From assembly GCF_902652985.1 (NCBI RefSeq), contig NC_047017.1, forward strand, positions 3,906,001 to 3,970,000: a stretch of DNA of 64,000 nt, written 5' to 3'. Positions 35,543-62,673 of this stretch are shown here, piece after piece; positions within the stretch are counted from its first letter, which is position 1, and each line of letters starts with the position of its first letter. The notes under the pieces are model-generated. The model made no database searches. It had not been told where the DNA came from and saw nothing but the letters and a program-made list of their open reading frames with translations. This DNA is from Pecten maximus. Lineage: Eukaryota. The position numbers and the translations under genes are program-made.

Positions 35543-35574
35543 GAATTCCAAGTTTTGTAATCAGGGCTTCATCA

Positions 35575-37478
35575 CCGTCGTCATGTGACTTAATCTGTTA
35601 TTTGACCCCATCATCTTAAGACACCATCGTCATATGACCTTAGCTGTTGTATGACTCCATCATCTGCAGACACCGTCGTCATATAACCTTATCTGTTGTG
35701 TGGCCCCATCATATGTAGATACCGTCGTCATATGACCTTAGCGGTTGTGTGGCCCCATCATCTATAGACACCGTCGTCATATGACCTTAGCTGTTGTGTG
35801 GCCCCATCATATGTAGATACCGTCGTCATATGACATTAGCTGTTGTGTGACCCCACCATTTGTTGACACTGTCGTCATATGACATTAGCTGTTATGTGAC
35901 CCCATCATCTATAGACACCGTTGTCATATGACCTTATCTGTTGTGTGACCACATCATCTCAAGACACCGTCGTCATATGACCTTATCTGTTGTGTGACCC
36001 CATCATCTGTAGACACCGTCGTCATATGACCTTAGCTGTTGAGTGTCCCCATCATCTGTAGACACCGCCGTCATATGACCTTAGCTGTTGTGTGACTCCA
36101 TCATCTGTTGACACCGTCGTCATAAGACCTTAGCTGTTGTGTGACCCCATCATCTGTAGACACCGTCGTCATAAGACCTTAGCTGTTGTGTGACCCCATC
36201 ATCTATAGACACCGTCGTCATATGACATTAGCAGTTGTGTGACTCCATCATCTGTTGACACCGTCGTCATATGACCTTAGCTGTTGTGTGACTCCATCAT
36301 CTGTTGACACCGTCGTCATATGACCTTATCTGTTTTGTGACCCCATCATCTGTAGACACCGTCGTCATATGACCTTAGCTGTTGTATGACTCCATCATCT
36401 GTAGACGCCGTCGTCATATGACCTTAGCTGTTGTATGACTCCATCATCTGTAGACACCGTCGTCATAAGACCTTAGCTGTTGTGTGGCCCCATCATCTGT
36501 AGACACCGTCGTCATATGACCTTATCTGTTGTGTGACTCCATCATCTGTAGACACCGTCGTCATATGACCTTAACTGTTGTGTGACCCCATCATCTGTAT
36601 ACACCGTTGTCATGACCTTGGCTGTTGTGTGACCCCATCATCTGTAGACACCGCCGACATGTGACCTTAGCTGTTGTGTGACCCCATCATCTGTAGACAC
36701 CGTCGTCATATGACCTTAGCTGTTGTGTGACCCCATCATCTGTAGACACCGTCGTCATATGACCTTATAGCTGTTGTGTGACCCCATCATCTGTAGACAC
36801 CGTCGTCATATGACGTTAGCTGTTGTGTGACCCCATCATATGTAGACACCGTCGTCATATGACCTTAGCTGTTGAGTGTCCCCATCATCTGTAGACACCG
36901 CCGTCATATGACATTAGCTGTTGTGTGACCCCATCATCTGTAGATACCGTCGTCATATGACCTTAGCTGTTGAGTGTCCCCATCATCTGTAGACACCGTC
37001 GTCATATGACCTTAACTGTTGTGTGACCCCATCATCTGTAGACACCGTCGTCATATGACCTTAGCTGTTGTGTGACCCCATCATCTGTAGATACCGTCGT
37101 CATATGACCTTAGCTGTTGCATGAGTGTCCCCATCATCTGTAGACACCGTCGTCATATGACCTTAACTGTTGTGTGACCCCATCATCTGTATACACCGTT
37201 GTCATGACCTTAGCTGTTGTGTGACCCCATCAACTGTAGACACCGTCGTCATATGACCTTAGCTGTTGAGTGTCCCCATCATCTGTAGACACCGCCGTCA
37301 TATGACCTTAGCTGTTGTGTGACCCCATCATCTGTATACACCGTCGTCATATGGCCTTAGCTGTTGTGTGACCCCATCATCTGTAGACACCGTCGTCATA
37401 TGACCTTAGATGTTGTGTGACCCCATCATCTGTAGACACCGTCGTCATATGACCTTAGCTGTTGTGTGACCCCACCAT
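35575..37478. repeat. 49-bp tandem repeat, about 39 units
   Basis: Unit gtcgtcatatgaccttagctgttgtgtgaccccatcatctgtagacacc. Confidence 0.97.
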
Positions 37479-38606
37479 ATCTTGTCACCTTCGTCATAAG
37501 ACGTAACATCAGAGGTTTGTTCAGCCTTTCTATAATAATTAAAAGTTCGTAATTGTTTTCGAAACATTTTTTTCGTTTTGTGTTTACTGACCATTGGCTG
37601 ATGTGTGCCATTTCGTCCTTTCGTCTCAAATGACGACATTTCAAACTGTATGTATATTCCACTTGTATGTACGATTAATATAACCAAAAAACAACTTTTA
37701 AAATAAAGAAAAAATAAGTAAGTAGGTATTTTTGGCTCTGGCACATATATGCATAAGTTCATCTATTGTAATACACACATCCATAGCAATCTATATACAT
37801 GTATTATTTCGAAGATAATTCTCCTCTAATGCCATTTGTGTTATATGCAGTTCGTCTCAGTGTCGGAGGGGAGGTAACTCGAACGACACCCGCGTGGTTC
37901 CAATTTTTTTGAGTCACCACAAATGTTGGCCATTGTTCTAATGATGACACCAGGCAGACTCCGAATGACACATTATCCCCGGGAGACAATGTACCAGGCA
38001 TTTTACAAATTACTTTAATTACATAGGGTAGGCAGAGAGAAAATCTTGCGGCCCAAATAAACATCGTTACCAAATTGCTGGCTCCTGGTGAACCTTAAGC
38101 TAACGACCCTTCGTTGACTGATAACGTATCTCTTTCTTAATTAAATTGAGGCTAAAGACAACCGAGAGATGTCGTCTGGCACCTGCTTAATCAGGGCCGA
38201 TAATCTGCCGATAGGGGTCGTAATCATAGCGGTGACGGTCACGCGACCCGCCCAGGAAATCGGCAGTTAGTTACATTTCTTTCTTTGCTTGATCTTTATC
38301 TGAATTCTCTACAATTTTCCCCTGTTCACCTGTCAACTTTAACAAATTAAATCAATTTCTTGAATTCAAAATTGCATTGTTCGTTAAAATAGTGGAAAAG
38401 ACAGACTTCCTTGGCATATTAACGCCACGGAAAAGCTTTAATAGTCTTTATACCAGGTTAAATAAATCTTTTTAATTAAGAATACGAAATATCGGGACTG
38501 GACCGGATCATCTGTTGGTAGTGACCAAACGGAATCTGCCATGTATTTCTAGTCAGTACAACACAGCATATTAATTAATACAAGCCATATTTATTGTACC
38601 ATAAAA

Positions 38607-38720
38607 ATCACAGGGGCTTGGCAAACAGCTTAATTTAAAACCCAAGGGTCCGTTTATACCTGTACAATATACATATACATACGGACCCTTGGGTTTTAAT
38701 TTGTGTCAAGTCCCTGTGAT
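38607..38720. mobile_element. Short fold-back (palindromic) element
   Basis: Outer arms atcacaggggcttggca/tgtcaagtccctgtgat and perfect inner arms ttaaaacccaagggtccgt/acggacccttgggttttaa. Confidence 0.75.
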
Positions 38721-41009: not shown

Positions 41010-41392
41010 ATTAGCTACTTATATTGCTTTTCTTATTCGTGTTCGTCCGTCGTCGTCCGTCGTCCGTCGATCGTCGTCGTTATTCGTTTACATCTTTGCA
41101 TTTTCAGGAGCCAATATTAATGAAATTTTGCATAAACCATTCTAAGACAACGGTCAATCAAAAGTGTAGATTATATGGTCAACCCTCCAGGGACAAAACA
41201 AAAAAGCCAAATAGACTGAAAATTCAAAAATACAATATTCTTCTGTCAGTAACAAGATGTGGCAGAATCAAATACTCTACACGGATATAAGGGAATCTAC
41301 CTTCGTAACCAAAGTTATAAATTTCATGGCACCCAGGGTAGCACGTTCCCCCCGGGAAGGGCTAACTTTCACAATAGCTATATATATAGGAG
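41010..41392 (+). mobile_element. Helentron/HINE-like non-autonomous element remnant
   Basis: ttagct start, a (cgtc/cgt)n microsatellite, then aatgaaattttgcata... and aaatttcatggcacccaggg...gggc boxes resembling bivalve HINE-type elements. Confidence 0.55.
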
Positions 41393-41394
41393 GT

Positions 41395-43388
41395 AGTGAG
41401 AATATGACGACGAGGGAGTGATGATGTGACGACGAGGGAATGACAACATGACAACGACGGAGAGACAACATGACGTCGAAGAAGTGACAACATGACGTGG
41501 AGGAAGTGACGATATGACGACAAGTGAGTGACAATATGACGACGAGGGAGTGACGATATGACGACAAGTGAGTGACAATATGACGACGAGGGAGTGACAA
41601 CATGACGACGAGGGAGTGACGACATGACGACGAGGGAGTGACAGCATGACAACGAGGGAATGACAACATGACGACGAGGGAATGACGACATGACGACGAG
41701 GGAATGACGACATGACGACGAGGGAATGACAACATGACGACGAGGGAGTGACGACATGACGACGAAGGAGTGCCGATATGACGACGAGAGAGTGACAACA
41801 TGACGACAAGTGAGTGACAATATGAAGACGAGGGAGTGACAACATGACGACGAGGGAGTGACAACATGACAACGAGGGAATGACAACATGACGACGAGGG
41901 AATGACGACATGACGACGAGGGAGTGACGGAGTGACAACATGACGACGAGGGAGTGACGGAGTGACAACATGACGACGAGGGACTGACGATATGACGACG
42001 AGGGAGTGACGACATGACGACGAGGGAGTGACAACATGACGACGAGGGAGTGACGATATGACGACGAGGGAGCAACAACATGACGACGAGGGAGTGACGA
42101 TATGACGACGAGGGAGTGACGACATGACGACGAGGGAGTGACGATATGATGACGAGGAAGTGACGATATGACGACGAGGGAGTGACGATATGACGACGAG
42201 GGAGTGACGACATGACGACGAGGGAGTGACGATATGATGACGAGGAAGTGACGATATGACGACGAGGGAATGACGACATGACGACGAGGGAGTGACGATA
42301 TGACGACGAGGGAATGACAACATGACGACGAGGGAATGACGATATGACGACGAGGGAGTGACGATATGATGACAAGGCAGTGACGACATGACGACGAGAG
42401 AGTGACGACATGACGACGAGGGAGTGACAACATGACGACGAGGGAATGACGACATGACGACGAGGGAATGACGACATGACGACGAGGGAGTGACAACATG
42501 ACGACGAGGGAGTGACGACATGACGACGAAGGAGTGCCGATATGACGACGAGAGAGTGACAACATGACGACAAGTGAGTGACAATATGAAGACGAGGGAG
42601 TGACAACATGACGACGAGGGAGTGACAGCATGACAACGAGGGAATGACAACATGACGACGAGGGAATGACGACATGACGACGAGGGAGTGACGGAGTGAC
42701 AACATGACGACGAGGAAGTGACGACATGACGACGAGGGAATGACGATATGACGACGAGGGAGTGACGACATGACGACGAGGGAGTGACAACATGACGACG
42801 AGGGAGTGACGATATGACGACGAGGGAGTGACGACATGACGACGAGGGAGTGACGATATGACGTCGAGGGAGTGACAACATGACGACGAGGGAGTGACAA
42901 GGAGGAAGTGACGATATGACGACGAGGGAGTGACAACATGACGATGAGGGAGTGATGACATGACGACGAGGGAGTGACGATATGACGACGAGGGAGTGAT
43001 GACATGACGACGAGGGAGTGATGACATGACGACGAGGGAGTGACAAGGAGGAAGTGACGATATGACGACGAGGGAGTGACGACATGACGACGAGGGAGTG
43101 ACGACATGACGACGAGGGAGTGACGATATGACGACGAGGGAGTGACGACATGACGACGAGGGAGTGACGACATGACGACGAGGGAGTGACGATATGACGA
43201 CGAGGGAGTGACGATATGACGACGAGGGAGTGACGATATGACGACGAGGGAGTGACGACATGACGACGAGGGAGTGACGACATGACGATGAGGGAGTGAT
43301 GACATGACGACGAGAGAGTGACGACATGACGACGAGGGAGTGACGACATGACGACGAGGGAGTGACAATATGACCACGAGGGAGAGAC
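41395..43388. repeat. 22-bp tandem repeat, about 90 units
   Basis: Unit gacatgacgacgagggagtgac. An internal block is duplicated at 764 bp (tgccg variant at 41771 and 42535). Confidence 0.97.
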
Positions 43389-45264: not shown

Positions 45265-45443
45265 TGTGTACAAAATGAAGACGGTGCCAAATATCCTGAT
45301 ATGATATGTGTAGAATATGACAATATTATATGTATACCATATGACAATAGTGTTTGTGTACAGTATGACAATAATGTGTGTATACAATATTACAATAGTG
45401 TATTATAAAATATGACAATAGTGTATGCTTACAATATGACAAT
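45265..45443. repeat. 24-bp minisatellite, degenerate left part
   Basis: Diverged copies of acaatatgacaatagtgtatgtgt, cut at ...gacaat by the Crypton-like dimer. Confidence 0.85.
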
Positions 45444-45605
45444 TAAGCATTAAACTGTCTTTTTATGGATTATATGGTCTATATAGATGCCAGAGCTTTG
45501 CAGACAATCTTCATAATGCGCGCTAGCGCATTATGAAATGATTGTCTGCAAAGCTCTGGCATCTATATAGACCATATAATCCATAAAAAGACAGTTTAAT
45601 GCTTA
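45444..45605. repeat. 162-bp near-perfect palindrome/hairpin at the element end (copy 1)
   Basis: taagcattaaactgtc...ttcataatgcgc-gcta-gcgcattatgaa-at-gattgtc...gacagtttaatgctta: 78-bp arms, a 4-nt loop and one 2-nt bulge. Confidence 0.97.
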
Positions 45606-45983
45606 TATTTACGTTTTCTATATTAGTTTCTTTTCGATTTCAACTTTAATTTTCATTATAATTTGAAATCTGACTTTTACCGACGTTTCCGTTGTCAGAG
45701 GTCAACAAATTGAACAGCCTATTGTGATTCACGTGCTGATTGGCAAAAAAAAATAAAAAAAAATAGTGCATGGAAATAATTAAAAAAATACTGAAAACAT
45801 CATCAGATATTTTAATAACAATATCAATAATATTGGTAGTCAGTATTTCAGAATATACGGATGAATTATTCAGTTTATTAACGATTTCGGATTTTTTTTT
45901 TAATTTACCATCCGGAACAATTATGCGGATGGAAATTTCACCCGTCACCACGCGCACGCAACGGCTGACAGCATTGACAGAGT

Positions 45984-46433
45984 TTAGCTATGAAAGTTGA
46001 ATGTGCAGTGGGAGAAAGTGGAATTCGCCAAAAAACCAGATGTAAACATGTTCTTTGATTGCATGGAAACCTGATTACAGTTTATAGTAGCTACAACAGC
46101 ACCGGTGTCAGGGATACGACCAATGTGAGAAGTGACAGTGGCCGAGGGAGTTAGACGAGCTTCAGCGACAACGTTGCTTGTGACGGGTACCATGGCTGTT
46201 TCAAGTTTAGGATGCGTTAGACACGATAATGCACCACTTGATGCTTTCTTTTGTGAAGAAGAAACTGTTCTATTATACGACCGGAGAGAAGCCTCGTTCT
46301 TATGATTTGACATAAACATGATGTGTCGGGTTTCAAAATTTTTGTCATTCAAACACTGGATGGCGGTGGCGCGCAAACAATGTGGTGTGTAATGATTTTC
46401 CACTCTGGCCCCGGAACAAATATCTGTCAACAT
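45984..46433 (-). pseudogene. N-terminally truncated tyrosine recombinase (Crypton/DUF3504-type) fragment, copy 1
   Basis: YTPHCLRATAI (H-x-x-R), IMFMSNHKN (second His) and SLRSY (catalytic Tyr) occur with Crypton-type spacing. An in-frame TAA just upstream of the Met means the first Arg/Lys region is missing. Confidence 0.82.
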
Positions 46434-46758
46434 ATGTGTTTATTAAATCTTGTTTTATTTCCATTTTCGTGATTGTTAACCATTCTTACCTTTATTTTCG
46501 TTTTACATTTTAAGATTTGTTTTCTGGTCTCGTACTCTATCCGATAGCATGATGAGCAATGATAAGATGCCATTTGTTTACATTGGTTGCAAGTAGTTCC
46601 GGGGGATCCGGTCGCGTATGAATAACACCCGAATGCACGATTTGGGTGTCAGTTATGCATAGAATGGTGTCACGCTTTGGGTGTCAGTTATACTCTCATA
46701 GACTGCAAATTTGTTTAGTTTGTTTATATCATGGCTTTGCCATCCAAATGTAAATATT

Positions 46759-46920
46759 TAAGCATTAAACTGTCTTTTTATGGATTATATGGTCTATATA
46801 GATGCCAGAGCTTTGCAGACAATCTTCATAATGCGCGCTAGCGCATTATGAAATGATTGTCTGCAAAGCTCTGGCATCTATATAGACCATATAATCCATA
46901 AAAAGACAGTTTAATGCTTA
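46759..46920. repeat. 162-bp near-perfect palindrome/hairpin (copy 2)
   Basis: Identical by eye to 45444..45605. Confidence 0.97.
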
Positions 46921-47299
46921 TATTTACGTTTTCTATATTAGTTTCTTTTCGATTTCAACTTTAATTTTCATTATAATTTAAAATCTTACTTTTACCGACG
47001 TTTCCATTGTCAGAGGTCAACAAATTGAACAGCCTATTGTGATTCACGTGCTGATTGGCAAAAAAAAAAAAAAAAAAGAGTGCGTGGAAATAATTAAAAA
47101 AATACTGAAAACATCATCAGATATTTTAATAACAATATCAATAATATTGGTAGTCAGTATTTCAGAATATACGGATGAATTATTCAGTTTGTTAACGATT
47201 TCGGATTTTGTTTTAAAAATTTACCATCCGGAACAATTATGCGGATGGAAATTTCACCCGTCACCACGCGCACGCAACGGCTGACAGCATTGACAGAGT

Positions 47300-47749
47300 T
47301 TAGCTATGAAAGTTGAATGTGCAGTGGGAGAAAGTGGAATTCGCCAAAAAAACAGGTGTAAACATGTTCTTTGATTGCATGGAAACAGCATTACAGTTTA
47401 TAGTAGCTACAACAGCACCGGTGTCAGGGATACGACCAATGAGAGAAGTGACAGTGGCCGAGGGAGTTAGACGAGCTTCAGCGACAACGTTGCTTGTGAC
47501 GGGTACCATGACTGTTTCAAGTTTAGGATGCGTTAGACACGATAATGCACCACTTGATGCTTTCTTTTGTGAAGAAGAATCTGTTCTATTGTACGACCGG
47601 AGAGAAGCCTCGTTCTTATGATTTGACATAAACATGATGTGTCGGGTTTCAAAATTTTTGTCATTCAAACACTGGATGGCGGTGGCGCGCAAACAATGTG
47701 GTGTGTAATGATTTTCCACTCTGGCCCCGGAACAAATATCTGTCAACAT
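47300..47749 (-). pseudogene. N-terminally truncated tyrosine recombinase fragment, copy 2
   Basis: Same 149-aa ORF with six residue changes, all C-terminal to the catalytic Tyr. Confidence 0.82.
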
Positions 47750-48087
47750 ATGTGTTTATTAAATCTTGTTTTATTTCCATTTTCGTGATTGTTAACCATT
47801 CTTACCTTTATTTTCGTTTTACATTTTAAGATTTGTTTTCTGGTCTCGTACTCTATCCGATAGCATGATGAGCAATGATAAGATGCCATTTGTTTACATT
47901 GGTTGCAAGTAGTTCCGGGGGATCCCGTCCGTACATCAGGTCGCGTATGAATAACACCTGAATGCACGATTTGGGTGTCAGTTATGCATAGAATAGTGTC
48001 ACGCTTTGGGTGTCAGTTATACTCTCATAGACTGCAAATTTGTTTAGTTTGTTTATATCATGGCTTTGCCATCCAAATGTAAATATT

Positions 48088-48524
48088 AGTATATATGTAC
48101 AATATGACGATAGTATATGTGTACAATATGACAATAGTGTATGTGTACAATATGACAATAGTATATGTGTACAATATGACAATAGTGTATTGTACAATAT
48201 GACAATAGTATATGTGTACAATATGACAATAGTATATGTATACAATATGACAATAGTGTATGTGTACAATATGACAATAGTGTATGTATACAATATGACA
48301 ATAGTATATGTGTACAATATGACAATAGTGTATGTATACAATATGACAATAGTGTATGTCTACAATATGACAATATTGTATGTATACAATATGACAATAG
48401 TGTATTGTACAATATGACAATAGTGTATGTATACAATATGACAATAGTGTATGTATACAATATGACAATAGTGTATTGTACAATATGACAATAGTGTATT
48501 GTACAATATGACAATAGTGTGTGT
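48088..48524. repeat. 24-bp minisatellite (23-bp variants), homogeneous right part, about 18 units
   Basis: Unit acaatatgacaatagtgtatgt(g/a)t, resuming in register (agtatatatgt...) immediately after the element. Confidence 0.95.
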
Positions 48525-48567
48525 GTTAAAATCATGTTTAACTGGTATCCTTTCAATCAACTTTCAG

Positions 48568-48604: not shown

Positions 48605-48954
48605 GTGAGTAGAACTTGTAAGAAGTACATGTCCTGCATTTCTCCGAGATTCTTCTTGTGTTAAAATTGTTAATGTCCTTAAATTGATGTCTAATGTGTC
48701 AAAATTGCGGATTTATTCCAAAATTGGCTGACAAAACATAATATAGCGGTACAGTTTTACATGCCTTTCTCTCTATATCTTAAAAGTACTTGGTCTTTTT
48801 GAGGAATATTGCAATGAGAACTAAATTCAGCCTCCGGTCTTCATAAAAGGATATTCTAGTTCTGATGAATCAATCAAAATAAATTGTATGGATATTTCTT
48901 AAAATTCACTTTTAATATATTTCCATAAAATAGATATACAAAAATGTATGTCTA

Positions 48955-49156
48955 CTGTAAACGTGGAAATTTACGCGAGAGGGAAATTTACGCTTTTGAT
49001 CGCGAAAATTTCCCCCATGCGTATTGCTTTGATATCAATTTGAGTAATCTCGAACGATAAACGAATGTGGATCGATCGCGAAAATTACCCGAACGCGTTT
49101 AGTTTACATATCTAAATCGCGAAATTAACCCCCCGCGAAAATAACTACGTTTACAG
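48955..49156. mobile_element. MITE with TA target-site duplication in intron 2 of the calmodulin-like gene
   Basis: ta|ctgtaaacgtggaaattt ... aaataactacgtttacag|ta. Confidence 0.85.
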
Positions 49157-49222
49157 TATTTGATAAATTTGTAGTTTGCTGTCAGTGATGACATATGAAC
49201 AGAATGTTTACTTAATTTCCAG

Positions 49223-49357
49223 AGAGGATCATGGACTCGTTCAAACGGGCCGACGAAGACAACAGTGGCTATCTCGACGCCAGAGAGTTGGGGCTCGTGA
49301 TGCGAGAGCTGGGCTTTAATCCGACGGAAAGTGATCTGGAAAAGATAGATACTGATG
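49223..49357 (+). CDS. Calmodulin-like gene, exon 3 (EF-hand 1 and start of EF-hand 2)
   Basis: ttccag acceptor and g|gtaag donor. Encodes RIMDSFKRADEDNSGYLDARELGLVMRELGFNPTESDLEKIDTD, which aligns to CaM [47 protein letters not shown]. Confidence 0.93.
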
Positions 49358-50073: not shown

Positions 50074-50328
50074 ACAATGGAAAAATAGAATTCAACGAAT
50101 TAAGAGATTACGTCATCAAGGAACGCAAAAAACTACTACCACCAAGTGAATTAGAAAAACAATTATGTGAAGCCTTTGGTTTGTTTGACACGTTCAGAAA
50201 AGGTTTCTTAACTTCAGACGAGCTGAAAGTGATTATGAAAGAAAGGGGGGAAACAGTTACGGAAGAAGATTACATGGAGTTTATACAAGAGGCTGATGAC
50301 GACCAGGATGGTCACGTGAATTATAATG
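50074..50328 (+). CDS. Calmodulin-like gene, exon 4 (end of EF2, EF3, EF4 loop)
   Basis: ttttcag acceptor and g|gtaatg donor, phase 1/1. Encodes DNGKIEFNELRDYVIKERKKLLPPSELEKQLCEAFGLFDTFRKGFLTSDELKVIMKERGETVTEEDYMEFIQEADDDQDGHVNYN. Confidence 0.93.
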
Positions 50329-50704
50329 GTAATGTGCTAGAACAAGATCGTTTTACTTCATATACATTTTGTATACTAGCGATTTCGGCTTAAGTTTTAT
50401 AGGTCACGGGTCAAGGTCATCTACTCATGGATCATAACTGAATGTTTCGAATTTCAGAAAAATCATAGGAAAGACAATAAGGGTTTTAGGGTGTTGGTAT
50501 ACGCTTATATGAAATGGAAAAAAAAGAAGGAAGATTTTATTTATTAGATGCATGATGTAACCGATAATTTCAAATCTTAGTATTTTTGTAAGAAACATAC
50601 TTTAAACTGTGTGTAGGTATTTTATTATGTGACATTAAAAAATGAACCATGTTACTTTTGGAAAAGGTAGGAACCTATATCGTACCAGCGATATATTTAA
50701 TCAA

Positions 50705-50785: not shown

Positions 50786-50978
50786 ATTACTAGGGCATTT
50801 AAAATTGAATGGTAGACATATACAGGTCAACTCCGTACAGTGCTCAAAATATTATGTTCGCTTTCAAAGTTTTGTTGTATTGGCGATCAGATGAAATGTC
50901 GCCGTCAATTATGGTGCTACATGTAATTATGACTTCATAACAACCAAGTGATGGATGGCATTTGCAGGTCTTTGATAC

Positions 50979-51849
50979 CCTTATATTCCGAAGGCCCGTT
51001 AGTCCGAAAGCCCAATACTCCGAAGGCCCGATAATCCGAAAATAGGTAAATAACGATACATGTTGTATAGTAATGTTGATTGTCTTATGTCAGCATTACT
51101 CGAAATTGTTACTTAAATCACCTTTTAAAAATCGGTAATTAGTTTATTACAGATCCATTGTCAAATGATTCATAGGAAACTTTCATAGATAAAGATCATG
51201 TTAACAACTGGTGAACTGCTTCTGTAGCTCGATGAAGCGACAATGTGAATTAACATCAAGAATAATGTATAATCTAAGTTAATGGGGGTAATCATGTAAA
51301 AGAAACGACATAATAAGCATGGATCTAGAAGAAAATGAATGTTCAAACTGGATATGAAGTTAACAGACAAAACTTGTTCCGCTTCGCTTAGTACCAATAT
51401 CCAGTGTCGCTCCCATACGGTGTTAATTCAACGAATCCCCAACAAAAATTGACGCTATAACCGCCCACCATCATCAAGATGTTAGTCTCGCACTCCCCAG
51501 ACTGGGAAGAAACGACAACTCTGGAAAACGCAAAAATTGCGTTGACGAGTCCATTCTAAATGGCGCCGCTGTGAAGCGTAACGTTGCAAGGACACGACGT
51601 CAAAGATTTCATATATATATATCACTGATCCACGCACTTTTTGGCACAAAGATTTTTTTCTTTCGGTCTTTAATTCCATATTTTTCGTATATATATTCTG
51701 TCATACTCGTGATACACATCTTATACTCAACAGGAAACCATTCATACATGCATATAACCATTTATCCAAGTTTTAATATTACCTATTTTCGGACTATCGG
51801 GCCTTCGGACTATTGGGCCTTCGGGTTATCGGGCATTCGGAATATAAGG
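50979..51849. mobile_element. Non-autonomous DNA transposon with ~70-bp internally repetitive TIRs, in intron 4
   Basis: Left ccttatattccgaaggcccg...tccgaaaataggtaa and right ttacctattttcgga...ttcggaatataagg. The TIRs are built of 16-bp subrepeats. TSD not identified. Confidence 0.85.
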
Positions 51850-51937
51850 CGATCACCATAATCCGCTCCGGTAAGTTATAAATCATATTCACCGATAACA
51901 GGGTTATTATAATAACTTCATATTTTCCTTATTTCAG

Positions 51938-53143: not shown

Positions 53144-53224
53144 GTCTGAGACTAGCCCGAGTTTCATCTGGTCCTAACACCAGTCTGATGTCAGGGCCAG
53201 ATGAAACTCGGGCTAGTTTGAGAC
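53144..53224. mobile_element. Short fold-back (palindromic) element
   Basis: ~36-bp arms gtctgagactagcccgagtttcatctggtcctaaca / tgtcagggccagatgaaactcgggctagtttgagac. Confidence 0.8.
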
Positions 53225-53677: not shown

Positions 53678-54968
53678 GGTCACTGAACTTCCGGTAAATC
53701 ATTAGTTCTATCGAGTCATGAAACTTCCGATAATTCATTAGTTCTACCGAGGTCACGGAACTTCCGGTAATTCATTAATTCTACCGAGGTCACCGAACTT
53801 TCGGTATTTCATTAGTTCTATCGAGTCATGAAACTTCCGGTAATTCATTAGTTCTACCGAGGTCACGGAACTTCCAGTAATTCATTAGTTCTACCGAGGT
53901 CATGGAACTTCCGGTAATTTATTAATTCTACCAAGGTCACGGAACTTCCGGTAATTCATTAATTCTACCGAGGTCACGGAACTTTCGGTATTTCATTAGT
54001 TCTACCGAGGTCATGGAACTTCCGGTAATTCATTAATTCTACCGAGGTCACGGAACTTCCGGTAATTCATTAGTTCTACCGAGGTCACGGAACTTCCGGT
54101 AAATCATTAGTTCTACCGAGATCACGGAACTTCCGGTAAATCATTAGTTCTACCGAGATCACGGAACTTCCGGGAAGCCATTATTTCTGCCGAGGTCATG
54201 GAACTTCCGGTAAATCATTAGTTATACCGAGGTCACGGAACTTCCGGTAATTCATTAGTTCTACCGAGGTCACGGAACTTCCGGTAATTTATTAATTCTA
54301 CCGGGGTCACGGAACTTCCGGTAATTCATTAGTTCTATCGAGTCATGAAACTTCCGGTAATTCATTAGTTCTACCGAGGTCACGGAACTTCCAGTAATTC
54401 ATTAGTTCTACCGAGGTCATGGAACTTCCGGTAATTTATTAATTCTACCAAGGTCACGGAACTTCCGGTAATTCATTAATTCTACCGAGGTCACGGAACT
54501 TTCGGTATTTCATTAGTTCTACCGAGGTCATGGAACTTCCGGTAATTCATTAATTCTACCGAGGTCACGGAACTTCCGGTAATTCATTAGTTCTACCGAG
54601 GTCACGGAACTTCCGGTAAATCATTAGTTCTACCGAGATCACGGAACTTCCGGTAAATCATTAGTTCTACCGAGATCACGGAACTTCCGGGAAGCCATTA
54701 TTTCTGCCGAGGTCATGGAACTTCCGGTAAATCATTAGTTATACCGAGGTCACGGAACTTCCGGTAATTCATTAGTTCTACCGAGGTCACGGAACTTCCG
54801 GTAATTTATTAATTCTACCGGGGTCACGGAACTTCCGGTAATTCATTAGTTCTATCGAGTCATGAAACTTCCGGTAATTTAATAGTTCTACCGAGGTCAC
54901 GGAACTTCCGGTAATTCATTAGTTATACCGAAGTCACGGAACTTCGGTAATTCATTTGTTCTAGCGAG
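53678..54968. repeat. 37-bp tandem repeat, about 35 units, with a 517-bp (14-mer) higher-order duplication
   Basis: Unit gaacttccggtaattcattagttctaccgaggtcacg. Variant tcgagtcatg occurs at 53821/54338/54855 and cgggaagcc at 54171/54688. Confidence 0.97.
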
Positions 54969-55299: not shown

Positions 55300-58200
55300 T
55301 TGATGGACGGATGCACTTAGTTGAGTGACAAAGACGCTGAGGTAAAAGATGGATATATTAGGTTGAATAATAAAATCGCTAATGAGGAAAACACTTAGTT
55401 GAGTAATGGAATCACATGATAAAGTTGGATGGTTGATACATTTAATTTGAGCGATGAAGACAATTAAATAATGTCGTTGAATGGTGAAGATAGTTGAGTA
55501 ATATAGACACTTAGTGATGAAAAATAGTGATGGAGACACTTACTTGAGTTATGTAGACACTTACAGCTGAGATGTGAAGACACTTAGCTACATGATGAAG
55601 TCACTCAGTTGAGTAATGGAGACATTTAGTTGAGTGATGTAGACACTTATCTGGATGATGCAGACGCTTAGTTGAGCGATGAAGTTAATAAGTTAAGTAA
55701 TGAAGACACTTCATATAGTTGAGTTAAGACATCTCAGTAACGGAGACACTCAGTTGAATGATAATGATGGTTGAATGATTGAGACACATATTTGAGTGAT
55801 GTAGACACTTTGTTAAAAGATTAAGACACCTAGTTCACTTCAGGAAGACTCTTAGTTGAGTGGTTGAGACGCTTATTTAAACTGATGGAGACACTTAGAT
55901 GAGTGGTGCAGATATTGAAATGAGTGAATGAGATACTTGATTAAACATTAACAGTTTATTGACTTAATTGAGTAATGAAGACATTTAGTTTTAAGATTAA
56001 GTCACTAAGTTGGACGATAAAGACACATAGTTGAGTGATGGAGACACTAAGTTAAATGTTGGATATAGGTATAAATAACGGGGTGATTGAGACATTTAAG
56101 TTGGATAATTGAGACACTTACTTAATTGAATGATGGGTACACTTAGCTGAGTGATTGAAACACTTTGTTAAAGTGATGGAGACATATAATGGGATCGTCG
56201 AGACATTTAATTGAGTGTTTGAAATACTTTGTAAGACATTTATGTATATAATGGGATGATTCAGACACTTAGTTGAATGATGGATACATTTAGCTAAGTG
56301 ATGGAGACCTAAAGTTAATTGATGCAGACAGCTTACTTGAATGATGGAGATACTTAGTTCAATCAACGAAACACCAAATTGAGTCATGTAGACATTTGTT
56401 TGGCGATGCAGACACTTACTTCGACAATTAAGTCACTTAGTTCGATGATTGAAAAACAGTAAGTTGAGCTAAGAAGACACTGAATTGAGTTATGTAGACA
56501 TCTGAGTGATCAATACACTTATTTAAGCTACGAAAACACTTAATTGAGTGTCGGAGATACTTAGCTGAGTGATGGAGATACTTGGTTGAGTAATGGAGAT
56601 ACATGGTTGAATGATAGAGATACTTGGTTGAGTGATGGAGATACTTGGTTGAGTGGAGATACTTGGTTGAGTAATGGAGATACTTGGTTGAGTGATGGAG
56701 ATACTTGGTTGAGTGATGGAGATACTTGGTTGAGTGATGGAGATACTTGGTTGAGTGATGGAGATATTTGGTTGAGTGATGGAGATATTTGGTTGAGTGA
56801 TGGAGATATTTGGTTGAGTAATAGAGATATTTGGTTGAGTGATGGAGATACTTGGTTGAGTGATGGAGATACTTGGTTGAGTGATGGAGATATTTGGTTG
56901 AGTGATGGAGATATTTGGTTGAGTGATGGAGATATTTGGTTGAGTAATAGAGATATTTGGTTGAGTGATGGAGATACTTAGTTGAGTGGCGGAGATACTT
57001 AGTTGAGTAATGGAGATACTTGGTTGAGTAATGTAGATACTTAATTGAGCGATGGAGGTACTTGGTTGAGTGATGGCGATACCTGATTGAATGATGGAGA
57101 TAGTTGGTTGAGTAATGGAGATACATGGTTGAGTGATGGAGATACATGGTTGAGTGATGGAGATACTTGGTTGAGTGATGGAGATACTTGGTTGAGTGAT
57201 GGAGATACTTGGTTGAGTGATGGAGATACTTGGTTGAGTGGTGGAGATACTTGGTTGAGTGATGGAGATACTTGGTTGAGTGACGGAGATACTTGGTTGA
57301 GTGATGGAGATACTTGGTTGAGTGATGGAGATACTTGGTTGAGTGACGGAGATACTTGGTTTAGTGATAGAGATACTTGGTTGAGTGATGGAGATACTTA
57401 GTTGAATGATGGAGATACTTGGTTGAGTGATGGAGATACTTGGTCGAGCGATGATGATACTTAATTGAGCGATGGAGATACTTGGTTGAGTGATGATGAT
57501 ACTTAATTGAGCGATGGAGATACTTGGTTGAGTGATGGCGATACCTGATTGAATGATGGAGATAGTTGGTTGAGTAATGGAGATACATAGTTGAGTGATG
57601 GAGATACTTGGTTGAGTGATAGAGATACTTGGTTGAGTGATGGAGATACTTGGTTGAGTGATGGAGATACTTGGTTTAGTGATGGAGATACATGGTTGAG
57701 TGATGGAGATACTTGGTTGAGTGATAGAGATACTTAGTTGAGTGATAGAGATACTTGGTTGAGTGATAGAGATACTTGGTTGAGTGATGGAGATACTTGG
57801 TTGAGTGATGGAGATACTTGGTTGAGTGATGGAGATACTTGGTTGAGTGATAGAGATACTTAGTTGAGTGATAGAGATACTTGGTTGAGTGATGGAGATA
57901 CTTGGTTGAGTGGAGATACTTGGTTGAGTGATGGAGATGCTTGTTTGAGTGATGGAGTTACTTGGTTGAGTGATGGAGATACTTGGTCAAGTTATGGAGA
58001 TACTTGGTTGAGTGATAGAGATACTTAATTGAGTGATGGAGATACTTGGTTGAGTGATGGAGATACTTGGTTGAGTGATGGAGATACTTGATTGAGTAAT
58101 GTAGATACTTAATTGAGCGATGGAGATACTTGGTTGAGTGATGGAGATACTTGGTTGAGTGACGGAGATACTTGGTTGAGTGATGGAGATACTTGGTTGA

Positions 58201-60727
58201 GTGACGGAGATACTTGGTTTAGTGATGGAGATATTTGGTTGAGTGATGGAGATACTTGGTTGAGTGGTGGAGATACTTGGTTGAGTGATGGAGATATTTG
58301 GTTGAGTGATGGAGATACTTGGTTGAGTGATGGAGGTACTTGGTTTAGTGATGGAGATACATGGTTGAGTGATGGAGATACTTGGTTGAGTGATGGAGAT
58401 ACTTGGTTGAGTGATGGAGATACTTGGTTGAGTGATGGAGATACTTGGTTGAGTGATGGAGATACTTGGTTGAGTGATAGAGATACTTGGTTGAGCAATG
58501 TAGATACTTGGTTGAGCGATGGAGATACTTGGTTGAGTGATGGAGATACTTGGTTGAGTGATGGAGATACTTGGTTGAGTGATGGAGATACTTGGTTGAG
58601 TGATGGAGATACATGGTTGAGTGATGGAGATACTTGGTTGAGTGATAGAGATACTTGGTTGAGTAATGTAGATACTTGGTTGAGCGATGGAGATACTTGG
58701 TTGAGTGATGGCGATACCTGATTGAATGATGGAGATACTTGGTTGAGTGTTGGAGATATTTGGTTGAGCGATGGAGATATTTGGTTGAGCGATGGAGATA
58801 CTTGGTTGAGTGATGGCGATACCTGATTGAATGATGGAGATATTTGGTTGAGTGTTGGAGATACTTGGTTGAGTAATGTAGATACTTAATTGAGCGATGG
58901 AGATACTTGGTTGAGTGATGGCGATACCTGATTGAATGATGGAGATAGTTGGTTGAGTAATGGAGATACTTGGTTGAGTGATGGAGATACTTGGTTGAGT
59001 GATGGAGATACTTGGTTGAGTGTTAGAGATACTTGGTTGAGTGATGGAGATACTTGGTTGAGTGTTGGAGATACTTGGTTGAGTGGTGGAGATACTTGGT
59101 TGAGTAATTGAGATATTTGGTTGAGTGATGGAGATACTTGGTTGAGTGATGGAGATACGCGGTTGCGTGATGGAGATACTTGGTTGAGTGATGGAGATAC
59201 TTGGTTGAGTGATAGAGATACTTGGTTGAGTGATGGAGTTACTTGGTTGAGTAATGGATATACTTGGTTGAGTGATACAGATACTTGGTTGAGTGATGGA
59301 GATAGTTGATTGAGTGATGGAGATACTTGGTTAAGTGATGGAGATACTTGATTGAGTGATGGAGATGCTTGGTTGAGTGATAGAGATACTTGATTGAGTA
59401 ATGGAGATACTTGGTTGAGTGATGGAGATACTTGATTGAGTAATGGAGATACTTGGTTGAGTGATGGAGATACGCGGTTGCGTGATGGAGATACTTGGTT
59501 GAGTGATGGAGATACTTGGTTGAGTGATAGAGATACTTGGTTGAGTGATGGAGTTACTTGGTTGAGTAATGAATATACTTGGTTGAGTGATACAGATACT
59601 TGGTTGAGTGATGGAGATAGTTGGTTGAGTGATGGAGATACTTGGTTAAGTGATGGAGATACTTGATTGAGTGATGGAGATGCTTGGTTGAGTGATAGAG
59701 ATACTTGATTGAGTAATGGAGATACTTGGTTGAGTGATGGAGATACTTGATTGAGTAATGGAGATACTTGGTTGAGTGATGGAGATAGTTGGTTGAGTGA
59801 TGGAGATACTTGCATGGTTAAGTGATGGAGATACTTGATTGAGTGATGGAGATGCTTGGTTGAGTGATAGAGATACTTGATTGAGTAATGGCGATACCTG
59901 ATTGAATGATGGAGATATTTGGTTGAGTGTTGGAGATACTTGGTTGAGTAATGTAGATACTTAATTGAGCGATGGAGATACTTGGTTGAGTGATGGCGAT
60001 ACCTGATTGAATGATGGAGATAGTTGGTTGAGTAATGGAGATACTTGGTTGAGTGATGGAGATACTTGGTTGAGTGATGGAGATACTTGGTTGAGTGTTG
60101 GAGATACTTGGTTGAGTGATGGAGATACTTGGTTGAGTGATGGAGATACTTGGTTGAGTGATGGAGTTACTTAGTTGAGTGATGGAGTAACTTGGTTGAG
60201 TGATGGAGATATTTGGTTGAGTGATGGAGATACTAAATTGAGTAATGGAGATACTTGGTTGAGTGATAGAGATACTTGGTTCAGTGATAGAGATACTTGG
60301 TTGAGAGATGGGATACTTGGTTGAGAGATGGAGATACTTGGTTGAGTGATAGAGATACTTGGTTGAGTAATGGAGATACATGGTTGAGAGATGGAGATAC
60401 ATGATTGAGAAATGGGATACTTGGTTTAGTGATGGAAATACATGGTTGAGTGATGGAGATACTTGGTTGAGTCATTGAGATACTTTATTGAGTAATTGAG
60501 ATTTTTGATTGAGTATTTGATATACTTTATTGAGTGATGGAGATACTTGGTTGAGTGATGGAGATACTTGGTTGAATGATAGAGATACTTGGTTCAGTGA
60601 TAGAAATACTTGTTTGAGTGATAGAGATTCTTGGTTGAGTGATGGAGATTCTTGGTTGAGTGATTGAGATATTTGGTTGAGTGATAGAGATACTTGGTTG
60701 AGTGATGGGGATACTTGGTTGAGTGAC
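55300..60727. repeat. 21-bp tandem repeat (degenerate 55.3-56.55 kb; homogeneous 56.55-60.73 kb, about 200 units)
   Basis: Unit gagatacttggttgagtgatg, with a 315-bp (15-mer) higher-order duplication (gatacgc at 59154 and 59469). Confidence 0.97.
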
Positions 60728-62574: not shown

Positions 62575-62673
62575 AGGTGCCTGACTCGTTTTATAAAGTA
62601 ACAACATATAAGAGTAGTCTCATTTCATTTATATGTACTCTTGTTATTATTTTATAAAACGAGTCAGGCACCT
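62575..62673. mobile_element. Short fold-back element/MITE in intron 1 of the beta-propeller gene
   Basis: Perfect 23-bp inverted arms aggtgcctgactcgttttataaa / tttataaaacgagtcaggcacct, abutting a (TA)n tract. Confidence 0.8.

Follow-up and report, generated by a model that had tools for sequence, protein, structure and literature searches.

The window analyzed here, a 64,000-nucleotide stretch of Pecten maximus contig NC_047017.1 (positions 3,906,001 to 3,970,000 of assembly GCF_902652985.1), contains two head-to-tail transposon units, each carrying a fragment of a tyrosine recombinase (YR) gene on the minus strand, which are inserted in a 24-bp AT-rich satellite (45305-45443 and 48087-48526). 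The positions of the units and of their end features are listed in Table 1. Probable exons of an EF-hand (calmodulin-like) gene were recognized by eye on the plus strand at 49220-49340 and 50075-50330, and the dimer lies upstream of this probable gene or in one of its introns. The window also carries long tandem arrays at 56544-60726, 35573-37502, 41390-43388, and 53678-54968 (with periods of 21, 49, 22, and 37, respectively), of which the 21-bp array has a strong GC skew, and further inverted-repeat elements, probably MITEs, at 50973-51855, 48953-49158, 53144-53224, 62575-62673, and 38632-38702, one of them with 16-bp subrepeats in its arms.

Table 1. Crypton copies in the window and the features of their ends
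Feature	Position	Strand	Remarks
Non-autonomous CryptonA copy 1, 1315 bp	45443..46757	- (YR gene strand)	Internal deletion derivative of a ~2.77-kb parent
Non-autonomous CryptonA copy 2	46758..48086	-	Head-to-tail with copy 1, 97.4% identical to it
Element 6-nt spacer (overlap region) TTAAGC	45443..45448	+	Crossover directly 5' of the spacer
Terminal hairpin, copy 1	45444..45605	+	+ is the putative folded and exchanged strand
Apical GCTA (G-NN-A) loop, C-G closing pair	45522..45525	+	Predicted fold
Apical 2-nt bulge, 3' arm	45538..45539	+	Predicted fold; the bulge of the original prediction
Inner half-site	45601..45616	+	4-nt spacer (45601-45604), then a 12-nt arm that is the far-end complement (45605-45616)
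YR C-terminal fragment, copy 1	45984..46439	-	H-x-x-R, H, and Y motifs; 151-aa stop-to-stop frame
Far-end recombinase arm, copy 1	46746..46757	+	Last base at the putative scissile bond 46757/46758
Natural joined-end fold (circle-junction equivalent)	46746..46931	+	12-bp arm, 2-nt bulge (46758-46759), and copy 2 hairpin
YR C-terminal fragment, copy 2	47300..47755	-	
Far-end arm, copy 2	48075..48086	+	
Split host target, right part	48087..48095	+	6-nt host spacer, then ATA; in the 24-bp satellite

Folding reproduced the 78-bp arms, GCTA apex, and single 2-nt bulge that had been predicted from the sequence: 78 bases of the 5' arm (45444-45521) are paired, and the hairpin consists of a 4-nt loop, a 12-bp apical stem, the 2-nt bulge, and a 66-bp stem, with a predicted stability of -90 kcal/mol and a z score of -25.55 (none of 200 shuffled sequences was equally stable). 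In both window copies it occupies a single end of the element, 3' of the minus-strand YR fragment, as the original prediction had it. The second hairpin (46759-46920) is identical to the first, whereas the whole copies are not; this identity is weak evidence alone, because the private substitution rates are 0.42% in the hairpin arms versus 0.36% in the element body. Two further details required amendment. The element begins one base before the hairpin rather than at its first base (position 45443 holds a T in 109 of 111 copies), and the stem, although it is a 162-bp hairpin by itself, gains 12 bp and a second 2-nt bulge once the far end of the element is joined to it.

A search of the window's genome (G000, 918 Mb) with the hairpin yielded 828 first-look candidates; all 40 scored places were identical to the hairpin, and the element body adjoins it in all 30 fetched loci. 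The proposed linkage of the hairpin to the YR body is thus borne out, also by three long copies, and an independent MITE unlinked to that body was not found among these 30 loci, each of which runs on into the Crypton body, so that identification as a MITE was rejected. When the YR fragment served as the query, 396 candidates were obtained, and among the 150 that were scored three lie in 384- to 425-aa frames within 2.8-kb copies that have both ends in common with the window element. The window copy matches one such long copy (L061) at element positions 1-996 and 995-1329. The same genome holds hundreds of element copies together with 2.8-kb parents encoding an intact DUF3504 YR, and the window copies differ from the family majority sequence by ~1.6%.

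The YR fragment of the window matches the Phage_integrase profile with an E value of 9.7e-05, which is under the curated cut-off. The long-copy protein matches both DUF3504 (E value of 2e-10; 41.4 bits with a cut-off of 29.7) and Phage_integrase (2.6e-08, above the cut-off) and contains the catalytic residues R147, K180, H273/R276, H299, and Y308. It is encoded by the single long frame of the 2.77-kb copy, which has no reverse transcriptase or DDE transposase; a HUH/Helitron mechanism was rejected on the grounds that long copies code for a YR only. In a structural model of the long-copy YR (pLDDT of 82) the nearest structures are Cre/Tre (TM score of 0.66), and the integron integrase IntI (2a3v) scores much lower (0.38). 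Membership in the integrons was rejected on the basis of the DUF3504 protein and of this Cre-like fold, which ranks far above IntI. By sequence, the top match of the long-copy YR in the PDB is QRICH1; CryptonA elements are the source of the ZMYM, QRICH1, and KCTD1 genes. The flanks of 111 copies show no target-site duplication and no terminal inverted repeats at the two ends of the element, at insertions into satellites the flanks reconstitute the empty site with no duplication, and the non-autonomous derivatives have both ends in common with their parent. Judged by the DUF3504/YR domain, the catalytic residues, the ends, and the derivatives sharing parental ends, the sequence features assign the window element to the CryptonA family, as non-autonomous derivatives. 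The 4- to 6-bp direct repeats that the Goodwin model places at both ends are absent, the only match being the 3-bp TAT in 75 of 111 copies. YR relatives were found in none of 12 candidate stretches from viral contigs. The long copy L061 (L061:1-4200) is inserted beside frames resembling capsid and protease genes of the Polinton/Maverick type. RNA-library contigs (run X3) span the element, including the YR fragment, and are at most candidate transcripts.

Repbase labels the Crypton-derived Eulor5/6 repeats self-complementary, and for this reason curators may know the hairpin itself. In the published text that was available, Eulor5/6 are classed as Cryptons with no mention of palindromes (PMC5753468), the words "hairpin" and "palindrom" are absent from a 2026 paper on CryptonA (PMC13465315), and animal Cryptons are described as lacking direct as well as inverted terminal repeats (Kojima and Jurka 2011, PMC3212892). 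The CryptonA elements of the last study, as far as its accessible part describes them, resemble those analyzed here in encoding only a DUF3504/YR protein, in having abundant non-autonomous deletion derivatives, and in lacking a target duplication, and a circle was proposed as their intermediate; the ~160-bp terminal hairpin, the inner copy of the far end, the TAT-N6-ATA target, and the one-sided junctions set the present elements apart. No description of a folded Crypton site was found in a literature search whose scope excluded subscription journals, supplements, and Repbase/Dfam notes.

The ends were defined from 140 fetched loci with 140 usable inner-anchor matches, which duplicate removal reduced to 121 rows, 111 of them with both ends; the duplicate filter also merged copies without an outer arm, of which a recount found 9 (1 at a locus edge), along with 3 family-A loci without an anchor. 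The far end terminates in TAT in 110 of 111 copies, and the host triplet before the hairpin end is TAT in 75 and another triplet in 36. The host flanks (n = 106 on each side) read T (.88), A (.95), T (.78), followed by six weakly biased bases and then A (.56), T (.85), A (.63). Since this second conserved block sits 7-9 bases rightward, the target is TAT-N6-ATA. Core sites of YRs consist of two inverted arms flanking a 6-bp spacer, and both the target and the element junction, the latter with TTAAGC as its spacer, have this layout. TAT was accordingly rejected as a target duplication or a homology core, being the final three bases of a binding arm.

The junctions are one-sided. Among 111 copies, 35 have a non-TAT triplet on the left and TAT on the right, none shows the reverse, and 1 has non-TAT triplets on both sides; for base +1, 75 have T on the left and non-T on the right, with the reverse in 2. 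All copies share a single crossover position. In no case among 119 distinct far-end flanks does host DNA come after the element spacer (the dimer junction makes up one collapsed class), and at the outer end 5 or 6 of the 6 spacer bases are kept in 114 of 115 cases, if rows of the ATAAGC type are taken as the inner arm read from the opposite strand. Exchange of two strands over a non-homologous spacer would be expected to leave both crossover positions after replication, and only one is seen. From the lack of host-flanked far ends with the element spacer, together with the 35:0 and 75:2 asymmetries, one strand pair alone appears to have been exchanged, as far as a genomic footprint can tell; the one-sided junctions point to the plus strand of the window, cut at 46757/46758. 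Polarity alone is no proof of folding, since the bacterial SE elements show strand-biased circularization by a YR, and the same pattern could arise if a heteroduplex spacer were repaired with a bias.

What brings folding into the argument is the inner half-site, whose arm (45605-45616) can pair with the far end of the element (46746-46757), one of the pairs being G.T. Its spacer is 4 nt long, compared with 6 nt at the junction, so that a 2-nt bulge forms directly 3' of the putative cut when the two ends are joined. The predicted energies of the junction folds of the two strands are just 2 kcal/mol apart. In the window's family (A) and in B, D, G, J, K, and L, far ends were located by alignment of copies and pair with the inner arm of their own family; in family H a search for the sequence complementary to the inner arm located the far end in each of 3 copies. 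An unrestricted complement search gave spurious best matches (L144, L151, L165, L176, and short contigs), and a fixed-register test was used instead. It covered 15 families, 11 from the window's genome and 4 from metagenomes, down to ~24% protein identity, with the outer register set by analogy in six single-copy families and with kin families not being independent. A 4-nt inner spacer came out best in 14 of the 15; inverted half-sites with unequal spacers (6 versus 4 nt) that pair inside one strand are thus present in these families. Pairing of the far end with the inner arm of its own family averaged 11.07 of 12 positions versus 7.34 across families, a difference reached in 0 of 20,000 label permutations. 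Positions -12 to -5 show several pair types across families, at least three of them at several positions, i.e., covariation. The exception in the scripted test was family E, owing to a degenerate arm. Judging from these sequence comparisons, the conserved bulge is the one formed by joining both ends rather than the apical bulge to which the original prediction referred.

These families were collected with an N-terminal YR query, which gave 148 matches and led to 40 further fetched loci. Families that range from ~70% to 24% protein identity carry hairpins of ~140-180 bp at a distance of 290-960 bases downstream of the YR gene, with unrelated arm sequences; several copies are truncated or have no hairpin. 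The family represented by L173/L174 (23-28% YR identity) has defined ends and no 3' hairpin and may belong to a different Crypton group. A metagenome scan added at least 80 loci from other sources, many of them on contigs that end too early, and a 3' hairpin was seen beside YR relatives from other organisms in at least ~17 loci of some 11 groups. One family-B copy (L065:3259-6767) has been rearranged through internal inversions and carries two hairpins, and a DIRS/Ngaro-like retrotransposon with gag-like, RT, and YR frames (L072:1-3541) adjoins a family-A copy.

From the end architecture and the one-strand footprint we infer a chemistry that uses a folded substrate: the hairpin is the 3' end of a CryptonA transposon and, together with the other end, probably forms a folded-strand site for one-strand exchange by the YR of the element. 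The strand antisense to the YR gene would fold, either while single-stranded (at a replication fork or within a circle) or as an arm of an extruded cruciform. The YR would cut after TAT, leaving a free 5'-OH end at which the first two bases are unpaired beforehand, which would make homology between the element and target spacers unnecessary. A single exchange with a duplex target would give a pseudo-Holliday junction that replication resolves. In excision, the folded hairpin end would recombine with the duplex far end to form a one-strand circle, and such a copy-out route fits the high copy number. An existing far end would in turn make a good target, which would account for the dimers. The suggestion that the hairpin is a recombinase substrate stands in part, since it is neither a passive TIR nor a free MITE and a folded substrate is favored by several lines of evidence; its apical bulge, in contrast, is not invariant. 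That animal CryptonA elements as a group move as folded single-stranded circles, by one-strand exchange of the integron/CTXphi type with no spacer homology, has in our estimate a somewhat better than even chance of being right.

By analogy, the closest working counterpart of the joined-end site is attP of CTXphi. As described in PMC4246890, recombination of attP(+) with dif by XerC likewise involves two inverted half-sites on a circle, which have unequal centers and pair within the strand, and one strand is exchanged (by XerC only) with a duplex target, the product being thought to be resolved by replication. The centers of CTXphi measure 12 and 5-7 bp and lie 90 bp apart, those of the Crypton 6 and 4 nt at ~150 nt; only CTXphi depends on the XerCD of its host, on dif as its one target, and on homology beside the XerC site and integrates irreversibly (same source), whereas the Crypton encodes its own enzyme, has degenerate targets, shows no spacer homology, and must also be excised. 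Integron recombination (attC x attI or attC x attC), as covered in the available portion of PMC5027507, is similar in that structure prevails over sequence, unpaired features matter, one strand is preferred, resolution is replicative, and units are stacked head to tail. There, every site contains a complete attC hairpin and IntI reads extrahelical bases, whereas the Crypton site becomes complete only when the ends are joined, and its protein model is nearer to Cre than to IntI, as noted above. The comparison with telomere resolvases (protelomerases), also made in the original prediction, fails because the crossover is at the stem base and thus ~80 nt away from the apex, not at the center of the palindrome.

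The only tyrosine recombinases with single-stranded substrates that the same review names in that portion are IntI and XerC/D. If the folded-strand reading is correct, CryptonA would provide the first eukaryotic tyrosine recombinase acting on folded single-stranded DNA and a compact, self-contained system that inserts DNA at degenerate TAT-N6-ATA sites. How animal Cryptons move had been open, and the circle model was an analogy; the end anatomy now supplies exact substrates (the folded junction, target consensus, cut position, and exchanged strand), which together with candidate intact enzymes makes the question directly testable. The end architecture can also serve as a structural signature with which to find and orient Cryptons.

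The alternative that survives best, possible but distinctly less probable, is that recombination takes place at an ordinary duplex circle junction and that the hairpin and inner half-site are accessory, as a second binding site or as a single-strand origin or primer of the circle once copied out, with the strand bias arising as in the bacterial SE elements or via biased repair. The junction does have the normal arm-6 bp-arm layout, and the strand-specific loops described below would suit a priming signal equally well. There are also precedents. In the accessible text of PMC9345347, SE-6945 has one strand circularized by a YR; SE-6945 and SE-6283 resemble the Crypton in YR-mediated movement, a 6-bp spacer, single-strand exchange, and copy-out and differ in being bacterial, in having four genes, and in that the donor is not left empty, with no hairpin mentioned. 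Starships are eukaryotic YR elements that move via a circle, and a synthetic circle suffices for their integration; they differ in having a DUF3435 captain and flanking microhomology, and the words hairpin, heteroduplex, and single-stranded are absent from the main text of the preprint (bioRxiv 10.64898/2026.09.21.753150). Against an accessory role, a binding site or origin needs no contiguous pairing of the arms with a 2-nt bulge placed at the cut, as seen in 14 of 15 families, and the wobbles in the far-end arm fall as G.T on the plus strand in families A, B, L, and m1.

The apex is less uniform than the joined ends. Inspection by eye showed that in all 11 YR-linked families with an intact apex in the window's genome the loop reads C-GNA-G or C-GNNA-G on the strand opposite to the YR coding strand; these are not 11 independent trials because loops are inherited among related families; the exceptions are L178 and L230, whose loops are not GNA/GNNA, and L192, which is ambiguous. 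GNA/GNNA loops are unusually stable on one strand only, a property that was looked for in a single literature source and not found there. The apical bulge keeps its side in 7 of the 11 families (also by eye), where the 3' arm has a net surplus of +2/+3 at 8-12 bp from the loop, but G.A mismatches take its place in the other 4, and in some copies of the window's own family it is flipped, symmetrized, or deleted. The 89 YR-selected family-A copies with an outer end comprise 64 full-length hairpins, 10 with the same 78-bp deletion, 13 with other deletions, and 2 longer ones; about a third of the copies have damaged hairpins, and deletions in the host genome recur at CryptonA hairpins. The 8 apex-deleted and 4 flipped copies are dispersed over a tree of 105 bodies, none with a nearest neighbor of the same type, which led us to reject the 78-bp form as a mobile subfamily. 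Such scatter, a sequence-level pattern to which assembly artifacts may contribute, suggests damage after insertion, with the intact apex as the mobile form. The proposed check for compensatory arm-to-arm changes found no compensation within the family among full-length hairpins: none of 46 arm substitutions in the 64 of them is compensated. Symmetric pairs occur in 2 of the 10 78-bp copies, where repair or assembly effects are possible. Mismatches in family-A arms comprise 12 distinct G.T and 4 distinct A.C events, a G.T excess that falls short of significance (p = 0.077).

The head-to-tail junction has 39 exact matches in the genome (control, 0). Of these, 30 were examined: 5 are family A-A dimers, 9 begin like other Crypton families, and 16 run into unrelated sequence, so that the count of 39 overstates the number of Crypton junctions. 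Joined ends are observed as genomic dimers only. The copies in the five A-A dimers are 92.8-97.8% identical, which indicates separate insertions; rolling-circle concatemers were rejected because copies within dimers differ by 2-7%. Stacking also occurs across families, with a family-F hairpin directly adjoining a family-A far end (L075:3480-3740).

Flipped apices and head-to-tail dimers could also be produced if the inverted half-sites recombined in a duplex circle, in an inversion like that of 2-micron/Flp, or if the element were amplified by rolling-hairpin flip-flop. This we regard as very unlikely. Flipped apices do exist (L051, L054/L074, L106, L109), but they are partial (loop only, or loop and bulge), and the flipped copies number 4 of 105 on the tree, scattered; the identity of the dimer copies speaks for separate insertions; and half-site spacers of 6 and 4 bp are incompatible in duplex YR recombination. 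Least probable of all, and largely refuted already, is an origin of the palindrome as an independent MITE or by passive fold-back duplication of the terminus. The same genome is rich in long palindromic repeats and the arms mutate after insertion at the rate of the body, but all 30 loci show the hairpin joined to the body, its position, similar length, and end logic recur despite unrelated arms, in other organisms included, and the intact form has spread even though about a third of hairpins are damaged.

Many Crypton copies of several families are inserted in AT-rich satellites like that of the window, which offer repeated TAT-N6-ATA-like sites. One such satellite (L074; G000:C8:34149000-34158999) holds three family-A copies, namely a copy whose apex is fully flipped, with a mini-element after it, a copy with the apex deleted, and a near-intact copy. 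A separate repeat family (L261, L263, L267, L269, and ~10 more) contains the 18-bp word of the Crypton junction and continues into differing sequence.
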